A stretch of 64,000 bases of DNA, taken from the sequence record PZ154897.1. One strand, written 5' to 3'. Shown piece by piece: positions 2,670-62,398 of this stretch (position 1 is the stretch's first letter; every line of letters begins with the position of its first letter). This stretch comes from a phage. The translations under genes were made by a program, and so were the position numbers. The notes under the pieces are model-generated. The model saw nothing but the letters and a program-made list of their open reading frames with translations, was not told where the DNA came from and made no database searches.

Positions 2670-3994
2670 TTGATTTCCTCTAAATCTTTGGTGTATTCTG
2701 TAACTACATCAGTAGTTTTCCAATATTCGTTTTCTTCTTTTTTAGCTTTAGCTTCTTCAGCAAGTTTCTTTGCTTCGTCAGAAGTCATATGAAAAATGTT
2801 CATTCCAACTAGTTTATCAACATAAGAAGAATACATATCAATTTTAGAAAGTTCTTCGGTCAGTTCTTTGCGAGTTTTACCTTGTACAACAATTTCACCT
2901 GAAATTACTTTCTTAATGAAATGTGCCTTAGCAAAAGCTAAACGAAATGCTGATTCAGTTTCTTTGATTTTGTTATCAATTCGTTTTTGGACATAAGTTT
3001 TACGAACTTCAACGAAGTCTTTAATTAAATCAACTACGTTATCGTAAACTTGCAGCTTTCCTTTCTCATTAATAACGGTAATATTCTGGGAACGACGCTC
3101 AATCAACCCGAAGTCTTTCATAATTTTTGCATGGCGTTCTTCTTCGTTATCACTCAAAGAGTATTCTTTACGGATTTTAACTTTGAAGCCAAAGCCATGC
3201 TCACCACAAGCATCATCCCATGTAATGAAGCCTTTATCTTCAAGTGGGTCTAAGATTTTACTCACATAAGTTTCACGATCATACTTATACGGAATCTCAG
3301 TGATATTCATTTGAGTTCGTGAAGTAAACTTGTACGTTCCACGAATTTCATATTGACCGTCAATTTCAACGACTTCACCACGAAATTCTGGGAATTCTAC
3401 CTTCGGTTTAGTTACTTTCTTTCCTTGAAGAGCTTGTAGTACAGCTTTCTTGACAGAAGAAACACTATGAGGAAGAATGTAAGTTGCATAACCAGTTGCA
3501 ATACCGGAAACACCATTAAGAAGAACAGTAGGAATAATAGGCAAATAGAAAGCAGGCGGAATGTGTTCTTTATCTTGATGTACCGGAGCATATTCAGTAT
3601 CTTTATATACGTTATAGAAATTTTTACTTACGCGAGCAAAAATATAACGACTTGCCGCTGCTTTTTGAACGGTACGAGAACCAAAGTTTCCTTGACCGTC
3701 TAACAGAGGAAAGTTATTATTCCAAGTGTTAGCCATCAAAGCCCCCGCATCTTGTGCAGAGTTTTCACCATGATGATATCCAAGGTCTGCTACACCACCT
3801 GCAATAGAAGCAAGTTTGTGAAACTTATCTTTATTTCCTCGCGCCAAATCAAGAGCTCGAGCAATAACAAATCGTTGGACTGGCTTAAATCCATCAATCA
3901 TATTTGGAATAGCACGATTTTCAACCGTGTACATAGCATAAGCCAGTGCTTCATTATCAATGATACTTTTTAAATCGCGATTATTCAGTTGCAT
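2666..3994 (-). CDS. 52: DNA topoisomerase II medium subunit (GyrA-like)
   Basis: 442-aa ORF, T4 gp52 length; breakage-reunion domain residues; synteny. Confidence 0.93.
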   Translation of the reverse strand: MQLNNRDLKSIIDNEALAYAMYTVENRAIPNMIDGFKPVQRFVIARALDLARGNKDKFHKLASIAGGVADLGYHHGENSAQDAGALMANTWNNNFPLLDGQGNFGSRTVQKAAASRYIFARVSKNFYNVYKDTEYAPVHQDKEHIPPAFYLPIIPTVLLNGVSGIATGYATYILPHSVSSVKKAVLQALQGKKVTKPKVEFPEFRGEVVEIDGQYEIRGTYKFTSRTQMNITEIPYKYDRETYVSKILDPLEDKGFITWDDACGEHGFGFKVKIRKEYSLSDNEEERHAKIMKDFGLIERRSQNITVINEKGKLQVYDNVVDLIKDFVEVRKTYVQKRIDNKIKETESAFRLAFAKAHFIKKVISGEIVVQGKTRKELTEELSKIDMYSSYVDKLVGMNIFHMTSDEAKKLAEEAKAKKEENEYWKTTDVVTEYTKDLEEIK

Positions 3995-3998
3995 AAAT

Positions 3999-4139
3999 TT
4001 ACCATACTAGTGAATGTAGTGCCATAATAACATCAGAAATGAAAAGCACGACTTGAATTAATCCGAACATTACTCCATAATATAGTGCTATCAATAAAAT
4101 AGCAAGGGCTACCGAGTAGCCCAAGATTTTCTTAATCAT
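3999..4139 (-). CDS. small membrane peptide (46 aa)
   Basis: hand-translated; ATG overlaps ac stop; ends 5 nt before gene 52 ATG. Confidence 0.45.
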   Translation of the reverse strand: MIKKILGYSVALAILLIALYYGVMFGLIQVVLFISDVIMALHSLVW

Positions 4140-4287
4140 TAGATAACAACGCAAATGTTAAATATGCACACATACCCTGGGCTAAAGCTTGTGAAAACAC
4201 ACTGCTAGCATCGATACAGATAGTTAAAACACATGCTACTATCCAACAAATAAATGAAATAACTCCTAATAGTTTTGCGATATTCAT
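4132..4287 (-). CDS. ac: Ac-like membrane peptide (51 aa)
   Basis: 51-aa hydrophobic ORF with GAGGA SD, between stp and 52 as in T4. Confidence 0.7.
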   Translation of the reverse strand: MNIAKLLGVISFICWIVACVLTICIDASSVFSQALAQGMCAYLTFALLSND

Positions 4288-4294
4288 ATTTTCC

Positions 4295-4375
4295 TCACTG
4301 GCGTCCGAAGACGCCTTTAGTTTTAAGATTGTTACGATAGAACTGCATCACATGTTCATTATGGAAATTACTCAT
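4295..4375 (-). CDS. stp: Stp peptide (26 aa)
   Basis: hand translation gives [26 protein letters not shown], matching T4 Stp as I recall it; TAATG overlap with ndd stop. Confidence 0.9.
4300..4315 (-). other. UUCG-tetraloop RNA hairpin inside stp coding sequence
   Basis: ggcgtc-cgaa-gacgcc on + strand = GGCGUC UUCG GACGCC on mRNA. Confidence 0.5.
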
Positions 4376-4830
4376 TAATATGCCTGCAAAACAAATTTAA
4401 AGTTATCAGCCAACATACGGTTCATTTCTTCAAGCGTTTGATACTCAGAATGATGATTACGAGTAAACGCTAAAGCTAACTGACCTTTTCCAAATCCCGT
4501 CGTCAGAGGTTTCATCTTAGAAGCAGGTAGATAAAATACTGTGTATGGAACATTATTATTTGCAATAGTACGCGCAAGCTGAGATCGACGCTGGCGAATA
4601 TGACTTAGAACTGCACTGAATCCTTGCTTAGAACGCTGATTACCTACATAAAATCGTGCAGATACACATGGACTATCAAATGGACCACCAAATTTGCTCA
4701 CTAAAAAGTAAAATCCAGGGTTAGACAAAATGTCTTTATGCGGAGTTCCAAAAACCCATTCACCGCCCTTGATTGTACCAATAACAGTTGCGCCTGCATT
4801 ATTCAAATCAGTAACAGTCATATATTTCAT
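4375..4830 (-). CDS. ndd: Ndd, host nucleoid disruption protein
   Basis: 151-aa ORF, T4 Ndd length; position next to stp. Confidence 0.8.
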
Positions 4831-4889
4831 GTTAATTTCCTCTAATTATTTTCTACTCCAAGGCCGCATGAATGCACACGGCCGATAAA

Positions 4890-5105
4890 TTAATCGTCGC
4901 AGTCGACGCTCAATTCCCAGAACTCTTCTACAGTATAAGTTTCAGTATCATTTTCAATACAGAAACGTTCATTGCTGTTGTTTGCTAAAGTAGCGTTAAC
5001 TGTCATTTTCTCGCTAGTGCTCTTAAGAGGAGAAATACGAATTAACTGATCACCATTATCTAAGCAAAAAATTTCGCCAACTTTTATATCTTTAAAAAAT
5101 TTCAT
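4890..5105 (-). CDS. hypothetical protein (71 aa)
   Basis: ORF. Confidence 0.5.
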   Translation of the reverse strand: MKFFKDIKVGEIFCLDNGDQLIRISPLKSTSEKMTVNATLANNSNERFCIENDTETYTVEEFWELSVDCDD

Positions 5106-5113
5106 AATTCACC

Positions 5114-5221
5114 TCAAGGAGTATAAAATCCAAATGCAGTTGTTGACCATCCCATCCAATATGGGATATTTGCGCCAATGTAAAATACAAGAATATAAAA
5201 CCAAATGCTTAGTAAATTCAT
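5114..5221 (-). CDS. micro-ORF, hydrophobic peptide (35 aa)
   Basis: hand-translated; ATG overlaps stop of upstream ORF (TAATG). Confidence 0.35.
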   Translation of the reverse strand: MNLLSIWFYILVFYIGANIPYWMGWSTTAFGFYTP

Positions 5222-5418
5222 TATTTTACACCATTCCAAATTGTTTCAACCACAGATTTCAAACCATTTTGGTGAATATCCATTCCGACAACCGCCATCA
5301 AATAGATTCCAACCACAACTGAACCCAAGGCGAAAATCAGCATGAAAATGAATAAAGCTGGAAAAATATTATCGAAAAACCATTCCATAAATGTAAAAGC
5401 ACTGCGTTTACGCTTCAT
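5221..5418 (-). CDS. small membrane protein (65 aa)
   Basis: ORF-track 5221..5439 trimmed to ATG with GAGGA SD. Confidence 0.5.
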   Translation of the reverse strand: MKRKRSAFTFMEWFFDNIFPALFIFMLIFALGSVVVGIYLMAVVGMDIHQNGLKSVVETIWNGVK

Positions 5419-5539: not shown

Positions 5540-5559
5540 TTTCTGTTCCTCCGTAGTTG

Positions 5560-5598
5560 ATAGGGTAATAATACCACAGAGGAACAGTCTTGTAAACA
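5560..5598 (-). promoter_or_regulatory. T4-type early promoter (GTTTAC -35 / TATTAT -10) with flanking 9-bp inverted repeat
   Basis: minus strand reads GTTTACaagactgttcctctgtggtATTATTA; near-identical to cassette at 60905-60962. Confidence 0.6.
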
Positions 5599-6069: not shown

Positions 6070-6104
6070 TTGTATAGTACCACGGTCCTTGTGGTATGTA
6101 AACT
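6070..6104 (-). promoter_or_regulatory. T4-type early promoter (TTTACA -35 / TACTAT -10)
   Basis: minus strand reads cagTTTACAtaccacaaggaccgtggTACTATA then conserved leader. Confidence 0.6.
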
Positions 6105-10351: not shown

Positions 10352-10384
10352 TAATTATACCACATCCTTGTGGTAAAGTAAACT
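10352..10384 (-). promoter_or_regulatory. T4-type early promoter (GTTTAC -35 / tggTATAAT -10)
   Basis: minus strand GTTTACtttaccacaaggatgtggTATAAT; 29/30 identical to promoter at 57950. Confidence 0.65.
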
Positions 10385-12200
10385 ATTGGCTCATCCATTC
10401 TTTACGAAGGTCAGCATTATCTCCCATGAGCATTTCAAAAAGCTCTTTCCAGTTCTCAGGAAGTTTAACAACATCATAAACTGGGTTTTGAATCATCTCA
10501 CGATATTCAGATTTTTCCAAAGAGCCAAGTCCCTTAATATAACGGATGCTATGTTTAGGTAGAGCATCTTTGGCACTCTCATATTCAGCGACTGTATAAA
10601 ACCATTCTTGTTTTTTACCGACCTGAGCGATGATTACAGGAGTTTTGACAAAGCGAATTCTTCCTTGTTCAAACAGTTCTGGCCAATTACTAAAAAATCC
10701 GAGCAGAGAAGGATAAATGCTTCCTAGACCATCATGGTCAGCATCGGTCATAATTGCAATATTATGATAATTCAAGTTTTCGGCTTTTTCACCAAGAACT
10801 AATCCAGTGATTGCGCAAATATCAAACAGTTCTTTGTTTTTAAGCATATCAGCATATGACATACCCCAACTGTTGAGAACTTTACCACGTAATGGATAAC
10901 CACCATGAAGTTCTTTATCACGAACATCAATAAGATATCCAATAGCAGAATCACCCTCAGTCAAGAAAAGAGTAGTATCAGCATCTTTACCACAAAGATT
11001 CGCTTTAATATGTTTATGAACCTTAGCTTTAGAAGCCTTTTTAGCTGCTTTAGTTTCTGCTGCTTTTTCTGCCGCCAATTTACGAGCAAGGGCAGCTTCA
11101 ATGATTGGCATTAAAATTGCTTCATTATTTAAAATAGCACGTGAAATCTTTTTAGCATCAAGCTGAATATGACTACGGATTTCACCAAATGGAGAAGTAA
11201 GTCGTTCTTTAGTTTGAGAATCAAATCGCATGTTTTTCATATCACGGACAAACATAACGATAGTCAAACATTCTTTGACACGTGCTTTAGTTACATCAAT
11301 TTTGAATTTACGTTTGATTTGTGGAATAAGGTCTTCACAAATATCATCCATAACGCAGTCAATGTGATGGCCACCATTCTTAGTATGAATGTTATTGACG
11401 TATGTTAATTGACGAAAACCATCCGGTGAACGACCAACAGCAATAGAACAATTTTCTTGTTCTTGAACGATAGCATGTTCATCATACTGTCGTGCATATT
11501 TCTTAAAATTACCCTGAACCTTTTTACCATTAAAGGTAAATTGAATATCAGGATAAACTACTGCAAGTGTCTGGAGACGATCCAGTGTAATGTCAAGATA
11601 AACTTGAGATAGCTCATTAGTTTCAAATGACATAAAATCAGGAATGAAAGTAACGCGAGTTCCTTTCCATTTTCCAGGAATAGTTTCCCACGATTTATTT
11701 TCCATGCCATTTGAACAACGAACTACAATATTATTTTGACCATCGCCGGTTTCACCGACAAACATCACAGAAAAAATATTAGTTAAACTAGAACCAACAC
11801 CATTCATACCACCAGTGACGCGTTCTTTATCATCACCGAAGTTACCACCTGCTTTTGGAATAGTCCATGCAGCAACTGGACCAGGAATTTCTTCACCGGT
11901 AGGTGTTTTAACCATCGCCTGTGGAATACCGCGACCGTTATCTTCAACTGTTACTTGATTGTTTTTAATAGTAACATTAATTTTATTTGCGAATTTAAAC
12001 TTAGTACGAATACCTTCATCTACTGAGTTATCGATAATTTCATCAATAAGCTTAACAAGACCAGGTACATACTGAACACTTTCCCATTTACCAAACAGAA
12101 AGCGCTCATGCATTTCATTAGCTGAAGAGCCAATGTACATGCCGCTACGCTTTTTGATATGTTCAATATCGCTCAGAATTTTAATTTCATTCTTAATCAT
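10383..12200 (-). CDS. 39: DNA topoisomerase II large subunit (GyrB-like ATPase), contiguous 39+60
   Basis: 605 codons from first ATG (ORF track starts at GTG 12203); GHKL ATPase and TOPRIM-like motifs; single uninterrupted ORF. Confidence 0.95.
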   Translation of the reverse strand: MIKNEIKILSDIEHIKKRSGMYIGSSANEMHERFLFGKWESVQYVPGLVKLIDEIIDNSVDEGIRTKFKFANKINVTIKNNQVTVEDNGRGIPQAMVKTPTGEEIPGPVAAWTIPKAGGNFGDDKERVTGGMNGVGSSLTNIFSVMFVGETGDGQNNIVVRCSNGMENKSWETIPGKWKGTRVTFIPDFMSFETNELSQVYLDITLDRLQTLAVVYPDIQFTFNGKKVQGNFKKYARQYDEHAIVQEQENCSIAVGRSPDGFRQLTYVNNIHTKNGGHHIDCVMDDICEDLIPQIKRKFKIDVTKARVKECLTIVMFVRDMKNMRFDSQTKERLTSPFGEIRSHIQLDAKKISRAILNNEAILMPIIEAALARKLAAEKAAETKAAKKASKAKVHKHIKANLCGKDADTTLFLTEGDSAIGYLIDVRDKELHGGYPLRGKVLNSWGMSYADMLKNKELFDICAITGLVLGEKAENLNYHNIAIMTDADHDGLGSIYPSLLGFFSNWPELFEQGRIRFVKTPVIIAQVGKKQEWFYTVAEYESAKDALPKHSIRYIKGLGSLEKSEYREMIQNPVYDVVKLPENWKELFEMLMGDNADLRKEWMSQ

Positions 12201-12225
12201 CACTTATCCTCGTTTGGTTTCGGGA

Positions 12226-12270: not shown

Positions 12271-12530
12271 TATTTAAAACGAATAGTCGAATCCTTGAAG
12301 AATAGTCCAGAACATACTGTTCCTTCTACTTTCTGCCCAGTAGGTCCAATAGCACGAAATCCAGTATGTTGGAAATCATTTTCAGAGCAACCGAACCAAT
12401 TATATCCAGTGATTTCAATATTAGTAAAACCACTTGAAGACAAAACTTTAGTTGCATTATCAGCATCAGTACATCCTACTAAAGACACTGCTAATACTAA
12501 TGCTGCAATAGAACGATTAATATATTTCAT
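12270..12530 (-). CDS. putative lipoprotein (86 aa)
   Basis: N-terminal signal peptide ending LVGC (lipobox). Confidence 0.55.
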   Translation of the reverse strand: MKYINRSIAALVLAVSLVGCTDADNATKVLSSSGFTNIEITGYNWFGCSENDFQHTGFRAIGPTGQKVEGTVCSGLFFKDSTIRFK

Positions 12531-12532
12531 AA

Positions 12533-12709
12533 TTACCCTTTAAGCAAGTCGTAAAATCCACCATTCACATGCTTAGGAGCGGAAACTAACCGAATAGCAA
12601 TCCGATGACAATCAGGACATACATCAGTATCCCTTTCAGAAATTTTCTTGATTTTTTCGTATTCTTTTGCACAGTCTTTGGATTGACATTTATAATCATA
12701 AAGCGGCAT
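12533..12709 (-). CDS. small zinc-ribbon protein (58 aa)
   Basis: hand-translated; CxxC...CxxC pattern; AAGGA SD; fills gap between ORFs. Confidence 0.45.
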   Translation of the reverse strand: MPLYDYKCQSKDCAKEYEKIKKISERDTDVCPDCHRIAIRLVSAPKHVNGGFYDLLKG

Positions 12710-12711
12710 AA

Positions 12712-13137
12712 TTATTCCTTAAAGTGAGCTTTCAACATCTGATACAAGGACCATGCTTGTTCATTATTTTCAATAGTAACTTTCATTACCGGGAATTCTG
12801 TGAAATCTTCTATTTGTTCTTGCTCTTTCTCTTCCTGCTCTTGCTCTTCAGCTGCCTGGTATGGATTTTCAACTTCATCAAAGAATTCAGCTTCGCTCGC
12901 TGAAAGCCAGATAAAATCTTCATCCAAAATATCTTTACCAGAAGATAACGCCAATTTTCCACTAGATGTCACAAGTTTAGTAGGACGACCAAGATAGTCA
13001 ATATCTGTAACTCTAAAAGGTTCCATACCTAAACGTCGTGCATAAATTCCGTTTTCAGTATGATATTTAATAAATTTTTCTTGAGCTTGTTTATTTTTAA
13101 ATTGATACCATTTATTAACTTCAAATTTAATAGCCAT
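12712..13137 (-). CDS. hypothetical acidic protein (141 aa), possibly GoF-like by size and position
   Basis: ORF; acidic E/Q-rich tract. Confidence 0.5.
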
Positions 13138-13352
13138 TAATAAATTTCCTTCCAGTAAGTTGTACCGTCTTCAGTGATTTCACGAAATACGCCATAAATT
13201 GGTTGTTTATCACCGACTTTCTCATACACATAAACAGAAGTCAAGTGAGTAAACTTGCTAGTATGTTCCTTTTGAACTACTACCAAATTTGGATCAAATA
13301 ATACATCTTCAAATTCATCATTAGTGCAATTCTGAACAATTTTACGTTTCAT
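13137..13352 (-). CDS. hypothetical protein (71 aa), possibly Cef-like by size and position
   Basis: ORF; ATGA-type overlap with upstream gene. Confidence 0.5.
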
Positions 13353-13449
13353 TACAATTTCCTCATTAATTGAACATTGGAGCGATGCGTTTCAGAAGAG
13401 TATCAGCACCTTTAACGAATTATCCATTTTATTCTCCAAGTTGTTTTCT

Positions 13450-13496
13450 GTATCAGTAGTTGATATTGATATAGTACCATAATCAACTACTGATGT
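13450..13496 (-). promoter_or_regulatory. promoter-associated stem-loop: 13-bp perfect inverted repeat enclosing tggTACTATA
   Basis: atcagtagttgat ... atcaactactgat with 17-nt loop holding the conserved -10-like module. Confidence 0.5.
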
Positions 13497-13523
13497 ATAT
13501 AGTTTTATGAAAAATTTTAAACT

Positions 13524-14021
13524 TTATGCACAGCGAGCTTTGCTATAGTGTTTAATCCAACTTTCAGGAATGGCTTTGTATGTTCCTAAAAATACCGCAT
13601 TGTACAACTTAACGCCATCTTCTACCCACTGATCGGTAATGTATGCGCACATAGCACGAGTACGGTGTTTTTGAACAACCCCTTCCTCATCTTCAGTAAA
13701 TTCGAATTCATAAGGAGCAATGAACTTAATAGCTTGACCGAGTTTCCACTTAAAGTCTACACCTACATGCGAAGTATCAATCGTTTCAATTCCTTTAGCG
13801 GGAACAGCTTTCAAAAACGCAGATTCAAGAAATTTCGCACGAACATAGCCAAACTGAGGTTTAGACTTTCCATCTTTAGGAATGATACGCACTTTTACTT
13901 CAGAATCTTCATCTTTAACACCATGTTTAAGCTGAATGCTTACAATTTCGACCAATTTTCCTGCTGCTTTAGAACGGGATTTATCAGATACACGAGCAAT
14001 TTCACCAATATTAATAATCAT
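13524..14021 (-). CDS. hypothetical protein (165 aa), paralog of next gene
   Basis: ORF; shares DQWVEDGVKLYNAV-type segment with ORF 14098..14640. Confidence 0.55.
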   Translation of the reverse strand: MIINIGEIARVSDKSRSKAAGKLVEIVSIQLKHGVKDEDSEVKVRIIPKDGKSKPQFGYVRAKFLESAFLKAVPAKGIETIDTSHVGVDFKWKLGQAIKFIAPYEFEFTEDEEGVVQKHRTRAMCAYITDQWVEDGVKLYNAVFLGTYKAIPESWIKHYSKARCA

Positions 14022-14062
14022 AGTTATCTCTCACTTGTTAAAAAGATTTTATACTCCACAGG

Positions 14063-14095
14063 ACCATTATACTCTGGCCCCAAGAGTTTGTAAAC
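14063..14095 (-). promoter_or_regulatory. T4-type early promoter (TTTACA -35 / TATAAT -10)
   Basis: minus strand TTTACAaactcttggggccagagTATAAT. Confidence 0.6.
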
Positions 14096-14097
14096 TA

Positions 14098-14640
14098 TTA
14101 ATTCAAAATAGCTACCACTGCACTACGAGGTACTACACTAAAATCACCTGCATGAACAACATTCAGAAGTTCAACGCCATCTTCAATCCACTGGTCTGTT
14201 ACCCAACCACAGACCGAAACAAATGGGGTCTTAATAGCTACAGCACGAGTTAGAAGGTCAGTAGGGTCTTGTTCTTCAACTTCTTGGAACAGGATGAACC
14301 CTTCTTCATAAACCAGGATTTTCTCTATTTTGTTATTGTCTAAACGACGACCGTGGACAATATAAGATTTAGTAAACCATTTACTTTTTTCAAAGTCTTC
14401 AACAATAAATTCGCCTTCGCCAAAAACAACAGTCAGAGTTTTATGGCCGGAAATCAAGGCATTAGTTTTAATTTTAGGTTCAACCAGTTTGTAAGTTTTG
14501 CCGATTTCAATAGCGGTAGTCATAGTAGGTTCCTTAATTTCCAGCGGTTTAACAGGGCATACATAAGTGCTTACAACATCAAAATCAATCAGTTTAGCTA
14601 CCGGATTTGGAGTGTATTCAGGATTATAATTAAATTTCAT
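14098..14640 (-). CDS. hypothetical protein (180 aa), paralog of previous gene
   Basis: ORF; conserved DQWIEDGVELLNVV segment. Confidence 0.55.
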   Translation of the reverse strand: MKFNYNPEYTPNPVAKLIDFDVVSTYVCPVKPLEIKEPTMTTAIEIGKTYKLVEPKIKTNALISGHKTLTVVFGEGEFIVEDFEKSKWFTKSYIVHGRRLDNNKIEKILVYEEGFILFQEVEEQDPTDLLTRAVAIKTPFVSVCGWVTDQWIEDGVELLNVVHAGDFSVVPRSAVVAILN

Positions 14641-15143: not shown

Positions 15144-15167
15144 TTTATTATCCTCAGTAGCTATGGT

Positions 15168-15201
15168 GTTATAATACCACAACTAACCGAGGAAGTAAAC
15201 A
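15168..15201 (-). promoter_or_regulatory. T4-type early promoter (GTTTAC -35 / TATTAT -10)
   Basis: minus strand GTTTACttcctcggttagttgtggTATTAT. Confidence 0.6.
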
Positions 15202-26951: not shown

Positions 26952-27009
26952 AACGATCTCCTCATTTAACCAACAAGACTACTATACCATAGTCTTGTCA
27001 GCTTGTAAA

Positions 27010-32445: not shown

Positions 32446-32480
32446 TTATATAGTACCATAAAGGAACCGGGATGTAAACC
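32446..32480 (-). promoter_or_regulatory. T4-type early promoter (GTTTACA -35 / TACTAT -10)
   Basis: minus strand GTTTACAtcccggttcctttatggTACTATA then conserved leader. Confidence 0.6.
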
Positions 32481-48336: not shown

Positions 48337-48415
48337 ACTTTGTGAAAATTATTTTAGGGAACGATAAGAAGGGAACGATAGCTTAGAATGGTAATATACA
48401 GAATGTGAGAAAGAA

Positions 48416-57949: not shown

Positions 57950-57979
57950 TTATACCACATCCTTGTGGCAAAGTAAACT
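57950..57979 (-). promoter_or_regulatory. T4-type early promoter (TTTACT -35 / tggTATAAT -10)
   Basis: minus strand TTTACTttgccacaaggatgtggTATAAT; near-identical to promoter at 10352. Confidence 0.65.
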
Positions 57980-60903: not shown

Positions 60904-60927
60904 TTTCTGTTCCTCCGTAGTTGATAG

Positions 60928-60962
60928 TTGTATAGTACCACAGAGGAACAGTCTTGTAAACC
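60928..60962 (-). promoter_or_regulatory. T4-type early promoter (GTTTAC -35 / TACTAT -10) with 9-bp inverted repeat
   Basis: minus strand GTTTACaagactgttcctctgtggTACTATA; 5' UTR near-identical to that at 5537-5598. Confidence 0.65.
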
Positions 60963-62350: not shown

Positions 62351-62380
62351 CCGTATCAGTTGATAGTTGTATAGTACCAT
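62351..62380 (-). promoter_or_regulatory. conserved -10/leader module preceded by a short hairpin instead of a -35 box
   Basis: ccgtatcagttgatagttgtatagtaccat; same module as at 2461 and 32432. Confidence 0.4.
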
Positions 62381-62398
62381 AAGCCCGAAGGCTCCCTA

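Follow-up and report, generated by a model that had tools for sequence, protein, structure and literature searches.

The 64,000-nt stretch of phage DNA analysed here (PZ154897.1, in the following called the window) represents a T4-like (Tequatrovirus) genome in which the early genes occupy the minus strand; phage P922 (99.5%) was the best match among 539 related records. The element under study lies in the motB-cef spacer, where the original prediction had placed it, and the flanking genes were confirmed as MotB and Cef by Pfam as well as by the annotation of relatives (Table 1). Reading along the minus strand, the motB stop codon (13524-13526) is followed by the cassette (13523-13452), a Shine-Dalgarno (SD) sequence (13437-13434) and an ATG (13427). 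This is the intergenic stop-to-SD/ATG span also seen in the promoter-early stem-loops (PeSLs), cassettes that combine an early promoter with a stem-loop and are found between small early genes of T4-like phages (PMC2839356; PMC4122927).

The hairpin is base-for-base identical in T4 (NC_000866, 6582-6594 and 6612-6624), which has the same 170-bp spacer, and the 75-nt element is present in about 530 phage records, 337 of them at an identity of at least 99%. Covariation within the genus was also looked for, and the Tequatrovirus element was found to be near-invariant with one wobble-compatible change: the only arm variant seen within Tequatrovirus is that of sutha, an A to G exchange that gives a G·U pair in the sense RNA. 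Insertions and deletions are located on both sides of the cassette. Upstream, RB68 and RB9 carry an extra 139-aa gene, RB68_010 (L065 1188-1607), between motB and the promoter cassette, and T4 homology resumes in these phages at TGCATAAAGTTTAAAA, that is, the stop codon and the beginning of the A/T tract. Downstream, the 89-aa gene (phrog_3720, function unassigned) of which the window retains a remnant is intact in sutha, RB68 and RB9 (L002 767-1036; L065 811-1080); the 208-bp deletion is flanked by short (G/T)AAAA repeats, and the remnant is found also in T4. Elsewhere in the window, the topoisomerase large-subunit ORF (10383-12203, minus strand) encodes a single 606-aa protein, while in the T4 record an insertion splits the large subunit in two and gene 39 (3778-5328) is shorter accordingly.

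Table 1. Coordinates of the motB-cef element, its flanking genes and the sibling promoter hairpins in the window
Feature	Position	Strand	Remarks
motB	13524..14021	-	165 aa; Pfam PF17613 motB, E = 1.4e-98; annotated so in relatives; its transcripts enter the hairpin
A/T-rich UP-like tract aagtttaaaatttttcataaaacta	13500..13523	-	begins directly after the motB stop; putative UP element
-35-like TATACA	13494..13499	-	5/6 match to T4-type TTTACA; its final A opens the 5' arm
5' arm AUCAGUAGUUGAU (sense RNA)	13482..13494	-	sits in the -35/-10 spacer
Loop UAUGGUACUAUAUCAAU	13465..13481	-	17 nt; holds TGn (13479-13477) and -10 TACTAT (13476-13471)
3' arm AUCAACUACUGAU	13452..13464	-	predicted +1 to +13; part of the leader common to other early promoters
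Shine-Dalgarno GGAG	13434..13437	-	14 nt 3' of the stem, unsequestered; belongs to the ORF after the cassette
11-codon remnant ORF MDNSLKVLILF*	13392..13427	-	frameshifted; left by the 208-bp deletion of the 89-aa gene
cef	13137..13352	-	Pfam PF24050 T4_Cef, E = 4.6e-35; annotated so in relatives; first intact gene behind the promoter
Shared sibling hairpin CTGTTCCTCTGTGG / CTACGGAGGAACAG	5543-5587 and 60907-60951	-	-35 at 5596 and 60960
Sibling spacer TCCTCGGTTAGTTGTGG / leader CCATAGCTACTGAGGA	15151-15193	-	-35 at 15199; upstream of a motB.2-like ORF
Sibling arms AGCTGACAAGACT / AGUCUUGUUGGUU	26968-27003	-	around -10 TATAGT; -35 at 27009

Inverted repeat and promoter elements in the motB-cef spacer

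On the plus strand, atcagtagttgat (13452-13464) and atcaactactgat (13482-13494) form a perfect 13-bp inverted repeat with 17 nt between the arms, which in arm length exceeds all other perfect inverted repeats of the 64-kb window with loops of up to 40 nt. The loop is partly self-complementary, giving a 43-bp near-palindrome overall (20-nt arms, 85% complementary, 3 nt between), and an inner 5-bp helix is possible within the loop on the minus strand. Folding of the minus-strand RNA yielded a dG of -20.2 kcal/mol as compared with -6.1 ± 2.2 kcal/mol for shuffled sequences (z = -6.4; none of 200 shuffles was as good), and the corresponding DNA values were -11.5 kcal/mol for the minus and -10.9 kcal/mol for the plus strand. 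The repeat search and the folding energies thus bear out the perfect 13-bp stem around a 17-nt loop that had been predicted, as well as its description as a very stable RNA hairpin. The proposed extension to 15 bp by G-U pairs holds for plus-strand RNA (t13451/g13495 and g13450/t13496), but in the sense of the minus-strand mRNA the same positions are A/C mismatches. Arms of at least 13 bp are expected about 0.2 times per 64 kb under a first-order Markov model, so that a 13-bp stem is by itself only mildly improbable. Because the loop is quasi-palindromic, the plus strand also carries an extended -10, TGaTATAGT (13467-13475), without a good -35 (tctgta), which could give weak antisense transcription into motB.

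The arms are arranged around the elements of a candidate early promoter. The distance from TATACA to the -10 TACTAT is exactly 17 nt, TGn is present, and the A/T-rich tract is near-identical to the tracts before the canonical early promoters at 6102 and 32478; TATACA is used as the -35 also by the cef promoter of Dhakavirus QL01. Behind the -10 follow the leader ATCAACTACTGATACAG, the SD and the ATG, with the AUG 24 nt beyond the stem. Promoter activity and the start point are predicted from these elements: with the usual 7-nt distance to the -10, +1 would fall at 13464, the 3' arm would make up nucleotides 1-13 of the transcript initiated there, and the 5' arm would occupy the promoter spacer from about -30 to -18. 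With one arm in the spacer and the other at the predicted +1 to +13, the hairpin is expected to fold only in read-through RNA from motB. A generic sigma-70 promoter scan did not list the promoter at 13499 (8 of 12 hexamer matches), and the annotation of fPS-2, which predicts early promoters nearby, has none at the site of the motB-cef hairpin.

The 10-mer TGGTACTATA in the loop (minus strand, 13479-13470) recurs without mismatch at five further sites of the minus strand (2480-2489, 6073-6082, 32449-32458, 60931-60940 and 62370-62379), and when one mismatch was allowed 12 matches were found in the window against 4.3 expected. Likewise, the leader ATCAACTAC... follows the -10 also at 2489, 6082, 32458, 60940 and 62379. 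Alignment on the -10 revealed a common cassette at four of the six exact sites, consisting of an A/T-rich tract tttaaaaatttttcacaaaac..., gTTTACa, a 17-nt spacer and TGgTACTAT, followed about 6 nt later by the leader ATCAACTAC(TGATAC or GGAGGA) and then by SD and ATG. At the other two, 2489 and 62379, the TTTAC -35 is lacking. The loop module is thus shared with other sites as originally proposed, and these belong to the same promoter-cassette family. The remark that a GTTTAC -35 is missing at the motB-cef site is literally true, but TATACA, with five of the six bases of TTTACA, stands 17 nt from the -10 behind an A/T-rich tract. The suggestion of a decayed promoter, on the other hand, did not hold up: the UP-like tract, a near-consensus -35 at 17 nt, the extended -10, the leader and the SD with its ATG are all kept, and the identity of at least 99% over 75 nt in 337 phage records argues against decay. 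As every part of the cassette is present, the promoter at 13499 appears complete.

Two further records are of note with regard to the make-up of the cassette. In Escherichia phage EC.W5-4 (PP476962.1, 40971-41125) the same UP tract, an identical leader, the SD and the ATG are found between different flanking genes, together with a canonical GTTTACA -35 and an unrelated, non-complementary spacer that forms no hairpin. The leader module consequently occurs without the 5' arm, which is evidence for a cassette that moves as a module. In Escherichia phage Pinarejo (PP925831.1, 5838-5992) the 17-nt loop stands between the arms in exactly the opposite orientation to that in every other record; the inverted version still reads TATACA-17 nt-TGaTATAGT, with the predicted start unchanged. 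Seen once among about 510 records, this may represent a rare template-switch inversion or an assembly artefact.

Related hairpins and compensatory changes

Complementarity between spacer and leader was further assessed, relative to shuffled sequences, at about 20 minus-strand early-promoter-like sites in the window. Pairing that was significant against shuffles, either in stem length (p ≤ 0.002) or in duplex energy (p ≤ 0.011), was observed at five promoters, with their -35 at 13499, 5596, 60960, 15199 and 27009. The hairpins at 5596 and 60960 have a 14-bp stem, two of whose pairs are G·U, and their 17-nt loop contains the -10. Their SD, GGAGGA, lies within the 3' arm, and the ribosome-binding site should therefore be sequestered in read-through RNA. 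Similarly, the SD GAGGA at 15199 is inside the 3' arm of a duplex with an energy of -23.1 kcal/mol (shuffle p = 0.001). The stem at 27009 has 13 bp counting wobble pairs (8-9 perfect) and a loop of 8-10 nt, and its SD is found 4 nt past the stem. The sibling stems in the window hold 2-4 G·U pairs each. Two further spacer/leader hairpins, with arm sequences different again, were found in a Karamvirus genome, and, over two genomes, about one in four of the early-promoter-like sites inspected had a hairpin with the -10 in its loop.

Other arrangements of repeats and early promoters were also encountered. Another promoter within a hairpin occurs in Enterobacter phage fGh-Ecl01, where a minus-strand promoter (-35 at 48393) has a spacer, AGTTAGTAT, complementary to ATGCTAACT over 9 bp (shuffle p = 0); ATGCTAACT includes the start codon of the downstream gene, and the pairing would mask initiation in read-through RNA. 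Three minus-strand promoters, with their -35 at 57977, 10382 and 6102, have a different, small inverted repeat, (T)ACCAC-aagga(t/cc)-GTGG(TA), that is contained in the spacer and extends into the -10, and Jiaodavirus KP1079 has the same CCACA..TGTGG motif at its cef promoter. The TGGTACTATA module at 62379 (minus strand) has no -35 hexamer; a CUUCGG-tetraloop hairpin, gggAGCCttcgGGCTta, is located immediately upstream (about 62381-62395), which makes for a PeSL-like layout, the stem-loop taking the -35/spacer position.

At the cef promoter itself, an inverted repeat was found on both sides of the -10 or overlapping it in at least 12 other T4-like phage lineages, namely Mosigvirus, Dhakavirus, Kanagawavirus, Marfavirus, Karamvirus, Gelderlandvirus, Mosugukvirus, Gaprivervirus, Serratia phage 92A1 and several uncultured contigs. 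The arms are unrelated in sequence, as exemplified by GGTGTAGGAG/CTCCTACACC, AGGGCTAT/ATAGCCCT and GGTAGAAGAC/GTCTTCTACC. In a gapless alignment of 13 cef promoters, all of which keep the -35, the 17 nt and the -10, 12 of the 16 helix pairs were altered on both sides. The covariation score was 0.349, as compared with 0.157 for shuffles (0 of 500 reached the observed value) and at most 0.134 in slid registers. At the cef locus, stems of 5 to 13 bp and loops of 5 to 17 nt occur with pairing kept throughout, and a C/A mismatch was seen in the stem of Mosigvirus FP43. Conservation of both arms with compensatory changes in relatives, which the original prediction had named as a check, was thus found, and the pairing is real, conserved and structurally selected.

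A U-tract was sought behind the orthologous cef-promoter hairpins, and none has one. Proteus phage Pm5461 carries a true intrinsic terminator at the cef promoter, an 8-bp stem with G/C and UUUUAUUUU that has the -35 in its loop, and in Erwinia phage Cronus a canonical terminator is located just upstream of the cef promoter, together with only a 5-bp repeat around the -10. Taken with these two terminators, the hairpins indicate that some transcript-boundary device is kept at the motB-cef junction in all lineages examined.

The base pairs also bear on whether the structure is formed in RNA or in DNA. Of 21 hairpins, 19 were more stable in sense than in antisense RNA, and G·U pairs outnumbered A·C inside the helices by 19 to 3. 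Since a single fixed column, in which the G of TGn faces a T of the -10, accounts for 11 of these 19 G·U pairs, the strand bias is moderate as evidence, and a structure in the mRNA-sense RNA is moderately favoured.

Roles considered for the stem-loop

The original prediction had listed a terminator, a processing site and a recombination site as possible roles. The same roles have been proposed for PeSLs, but the reading as an intrinsic terminator was not sustained. An intrinsic-terminator scan returned nothing at the motB-cef hairpin, the minus strand 3' of the stem reads ACAGAAAACAAC without a U-tract, and on the plus strand a U-run begins only 6-8 nt past the stem. With no U-tract and G-C at 4 of the 13 pairs, classical intrinsic termination is not expected, and a canonical intrinsic terminator was rejected. 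A T4 middle (MotA-dependent) promoter was likewise dismissed, there being no TGCTT MotA box in the spacer and no mapped middle promoter near T4 6.6 kb, as was a replication origin, oriA being near soc and several kb away. No match at E ≤ 1 was obtained when the Rfam 15 covariance models were compared with 12500-14500. The accessible literature on T4 transcription start sites and 3' ends yielded no RNA-end data for the motB-cef element, and the accessible papers on T4 RNA-seq and omics no mention of cef or of the motB-cef spacer.

The reading we prefer, to which we would assign a probability of about one half, is that of a PeSL-type cassette of early promoter and stem-loop that starts the cef-goF unit, with a hairpin that marks read-through RNA and probably serves as a transcript-boundary element. 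The anatomy of the cassette, its conservation, the covariation and the strand bias were observed, and the following course of events would be compatible with them. Host sigma-70 RNA polymerase would use the UP-like tract, TATACA, the 17-nt spacer and TGgTACTAT, and start at about 13464 on the minus strand. Transcripts born at this promoter would hold the 3' arm alone and form no hairpin. Transcripts initiated upstream, for instance at the motB promoter near 14094, would carry both arms and fold into the 13-bp stem and the inner 5-bp stem, with the -10 sequence in the loop. The effect of the hairpin on such RNA, deduced from its sequence and geometry, may be to attenuate or pause read-through, and/or to provide a protective 3' end for the motB mRNA or a 5' cap-like structure for the processed downstream mRNA. 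It could also represent the stable end left by Rho-dependent termination or by endonucleolytic processing, and the embedded promoter would then restart transcription at the cef unit.

A less probable alternative, though one with genuine support, is that the hairpin separates two mRNA populations by altering translation or decay of the read-through message, while the promoter's own transcripts escape because they are without the 5' arm; this might be achieved by 5' structure near the ribosome landing site, or by entry or blocking of RNase E. T4 offers a documented precedent in the promoters inside RBS-sequestering hairpins (e, soc, 49 and I-TevI), the siblings at 5596, 60960 and 15199 have GGAGGA or GAGGA within the 3' arm, and in a Karamvirus promoter the start codon is paired with the spacer. 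At the motB-cef site, however, SD and AUG lie 14 and 24 nt beyond the stem, as they lie 5-10 nt beyond it in most other genera, and in T4 as in the window the ORF directly downstream is a mere remnant of 11 codons. The difference in computed SD accessibility between read-through and own RNA is seen at hairpin-less control promoters too and is therefore uninformative. The broader proposal that hairpins with the -10 in the loop constitute a distinct, structurally selected regulatory class, whereby read-through and own RNA are handled differently in decay, processing or translation, or promoter melting is tuned at the DNA level, appears doubtful; the lack of U-tracts does speak against these hairpins being simply terminators. 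It is unlikely that the role is confined to DNA, with the RNA hairpin incidental to a recombination or template-switch hotspot (cruciform or lagging-strand hairpin) by which cassettes are shuffled, or to a supercoil-sensitive exposure of the -10. The presence/absence polymorphisms on both sides (RB68_010 upstream, the 89-aa ORF downstream) would fit such a hotspot, but their junctions are found at the stop codon and inside the downstream ORF, outside the stem. The exact inversion of the Pinarejo loop would fit as well, but it is a singleton that could be an assembly artefact. EC.W5-4, which has the UP tract and the leader in common with the window but not the spacer, and the stability of the DNA hairpins on both strands also speak for a DNA-level role. 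Against it, tolerated G·T, rare A·C and the greater stability of the sense RNA are not predicted by a duplex-symmetric DNA function, the 2-4 G·T pairs in the sibling stems would be mismatches in a cruciform, and a 17-nt spacer between the arms disfavours cruciform extrusion.

Two remaining explanations are very improbable. That the repeat is an operator at which a dimeric DNA-binding protein of phage or host shuts the promoter off would accord with the classic operator geometry of a 43-bp near-palindrome centred on the -10, and small putative DNA-binding proteins (MotB, the FmdB-like 39.2) are encoded nearby. Yet the arms are wholly different between promoters of one genome and between genera at the cef locus, and pairing is maintained over stems of 5 to 13 bp and loops of 5 to 17 nt. 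Unrelated arms with kept pairing are the signature of base pairing and not of a protein-DNA code, and a palindromic protein operator was accordingly disfavoured, with covariation found in place of a half-site conserved among sites or relatives. It is equally hard to credit that the palindrome is neutral, for example the product of one templated mutation event hitch-hiking in a conserved promoter. The expectation of about 0.2 such arms per random 64-kb window would allow this, as would the almost invariant Tequatrovirus region with its little within-genus covariation. The placement of the arms, however, is exact (spacer against +1 to +13), four sibling sites are present in the window, and the structure is kept across genera with 12 covarying pairs. 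It is the position around the -10 in combination with conservation and covariation, not the length of the stem, that excludes chance.

Comparison with known systems

Promoter elements are tied to an extrudable DNA hairpin in the phage N4 virion RNA polymerase promoters and in single-stranded promoters such as Frpo. These hairpins are recognised as DNA by specialised polymerases, or rebuild double-stranded -35/-10 boxes. The motB-cef element differs in that the -10 would be single-stranded in the loop, the predicted enzyme is the host sigma-70 holoenzyme, and the excess of G·U speaks for RNA. A parallel is offered also by the T4 genes e, soc, 49 and I-TevI, in which an internal promoter is located in the hairpin-coding region, so that long transcripts fold and promoter-proximal ones are without the 5' arm (PMC3014915). 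The motB-cef element has in common with these a promoter within the hairpin-coding region and, given the predicted +1, an own transcript without the 5' arm. Those promoters are, however, late promoters (TATAAATA) with the 3' arm over the SD or AUG, whereas the promoter studied here is of early type, has no TATAAATA and leaves the SD 14 nt outside the stem; the siblings at 5596, 60960 and 15199 do cover the SD, like the e, soc, 49 and I-TevI hairpins. The terminator at the cef promoter of Pm5461 resides at the same locus and resembles the element in that a hairpin ends or marks upstream transcripts and an embedded promoter would restart transcription. It differs by its G/C-containing 8-bp stem, UUUUAUUUU and the -35 in the loop, the element in the window having no U-tract and the -10 in the loop.

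The closest likeness is to the PeSLs of Krisch and colleagues (Arbiol et al. 2010; Comeau et al. 2014). Five subclasses have been distinguished by the position of the stem-loop, of which 'between -35 and -10' and 'overlapping the -10' are the commonest in RB49/phi1; one PeSL stem-loop cut downstream lacZ expression as strongly as rrnB T1, and the cassettes have been implicated in modular shuffling (PMC2839356). For T4/PST, the promoter consensus is given as TTTACW-N17-TAYWAT, and a figure legend places the stem-loops 'just upstream of the promoter' (PMC4122927). Like the PeSLs, the element is intergenic, spans the interval between a gene's stop codon and the SD/ATG of the following gene, and has an A/T-rich tract and a stable stem-loop in a described position, overlapping the -10. 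TATACA-N17-TACTAT fits the T4/PST consensus with one mismatch in the -35 and none in the -10 (TAYWAT). Several copies (5596, 15199, 27009 and 60960) are present in a plastic early region, next to indels. It departs from the PeSLs in its A/U-rich stem, theirs being polyG/polyC, and from the T4/PST loops, upstream according to the quoted legend, in that the -10 lies between the arms of the stem and the predicted transcript begins with the 3' arm. Judged by its sequence, with every hallmark at that level present, the element belongs to the PeSLs, in the subclass overlapping the -10.

Early expression in T4 is a classic model, in which the insulation of densely packed early units and the distinction between read-through ('delayed early') and promoter-proximal RNA are poorly defined. 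The motB-cef element places promoter and hairpin compactly in the same 60 bp, with pairing kept by compensatory change across genera, and as it is present in T4 itself it provides a mutable test case for the role of PeSL stem-loops in termination, RNA stability, translation or recombination. In relation to the described PeSLs, the cross-genus covariation and the geometry by which the spacer pairs with the predicted +1 to +13 are useful refinements of a known system and not a new one.
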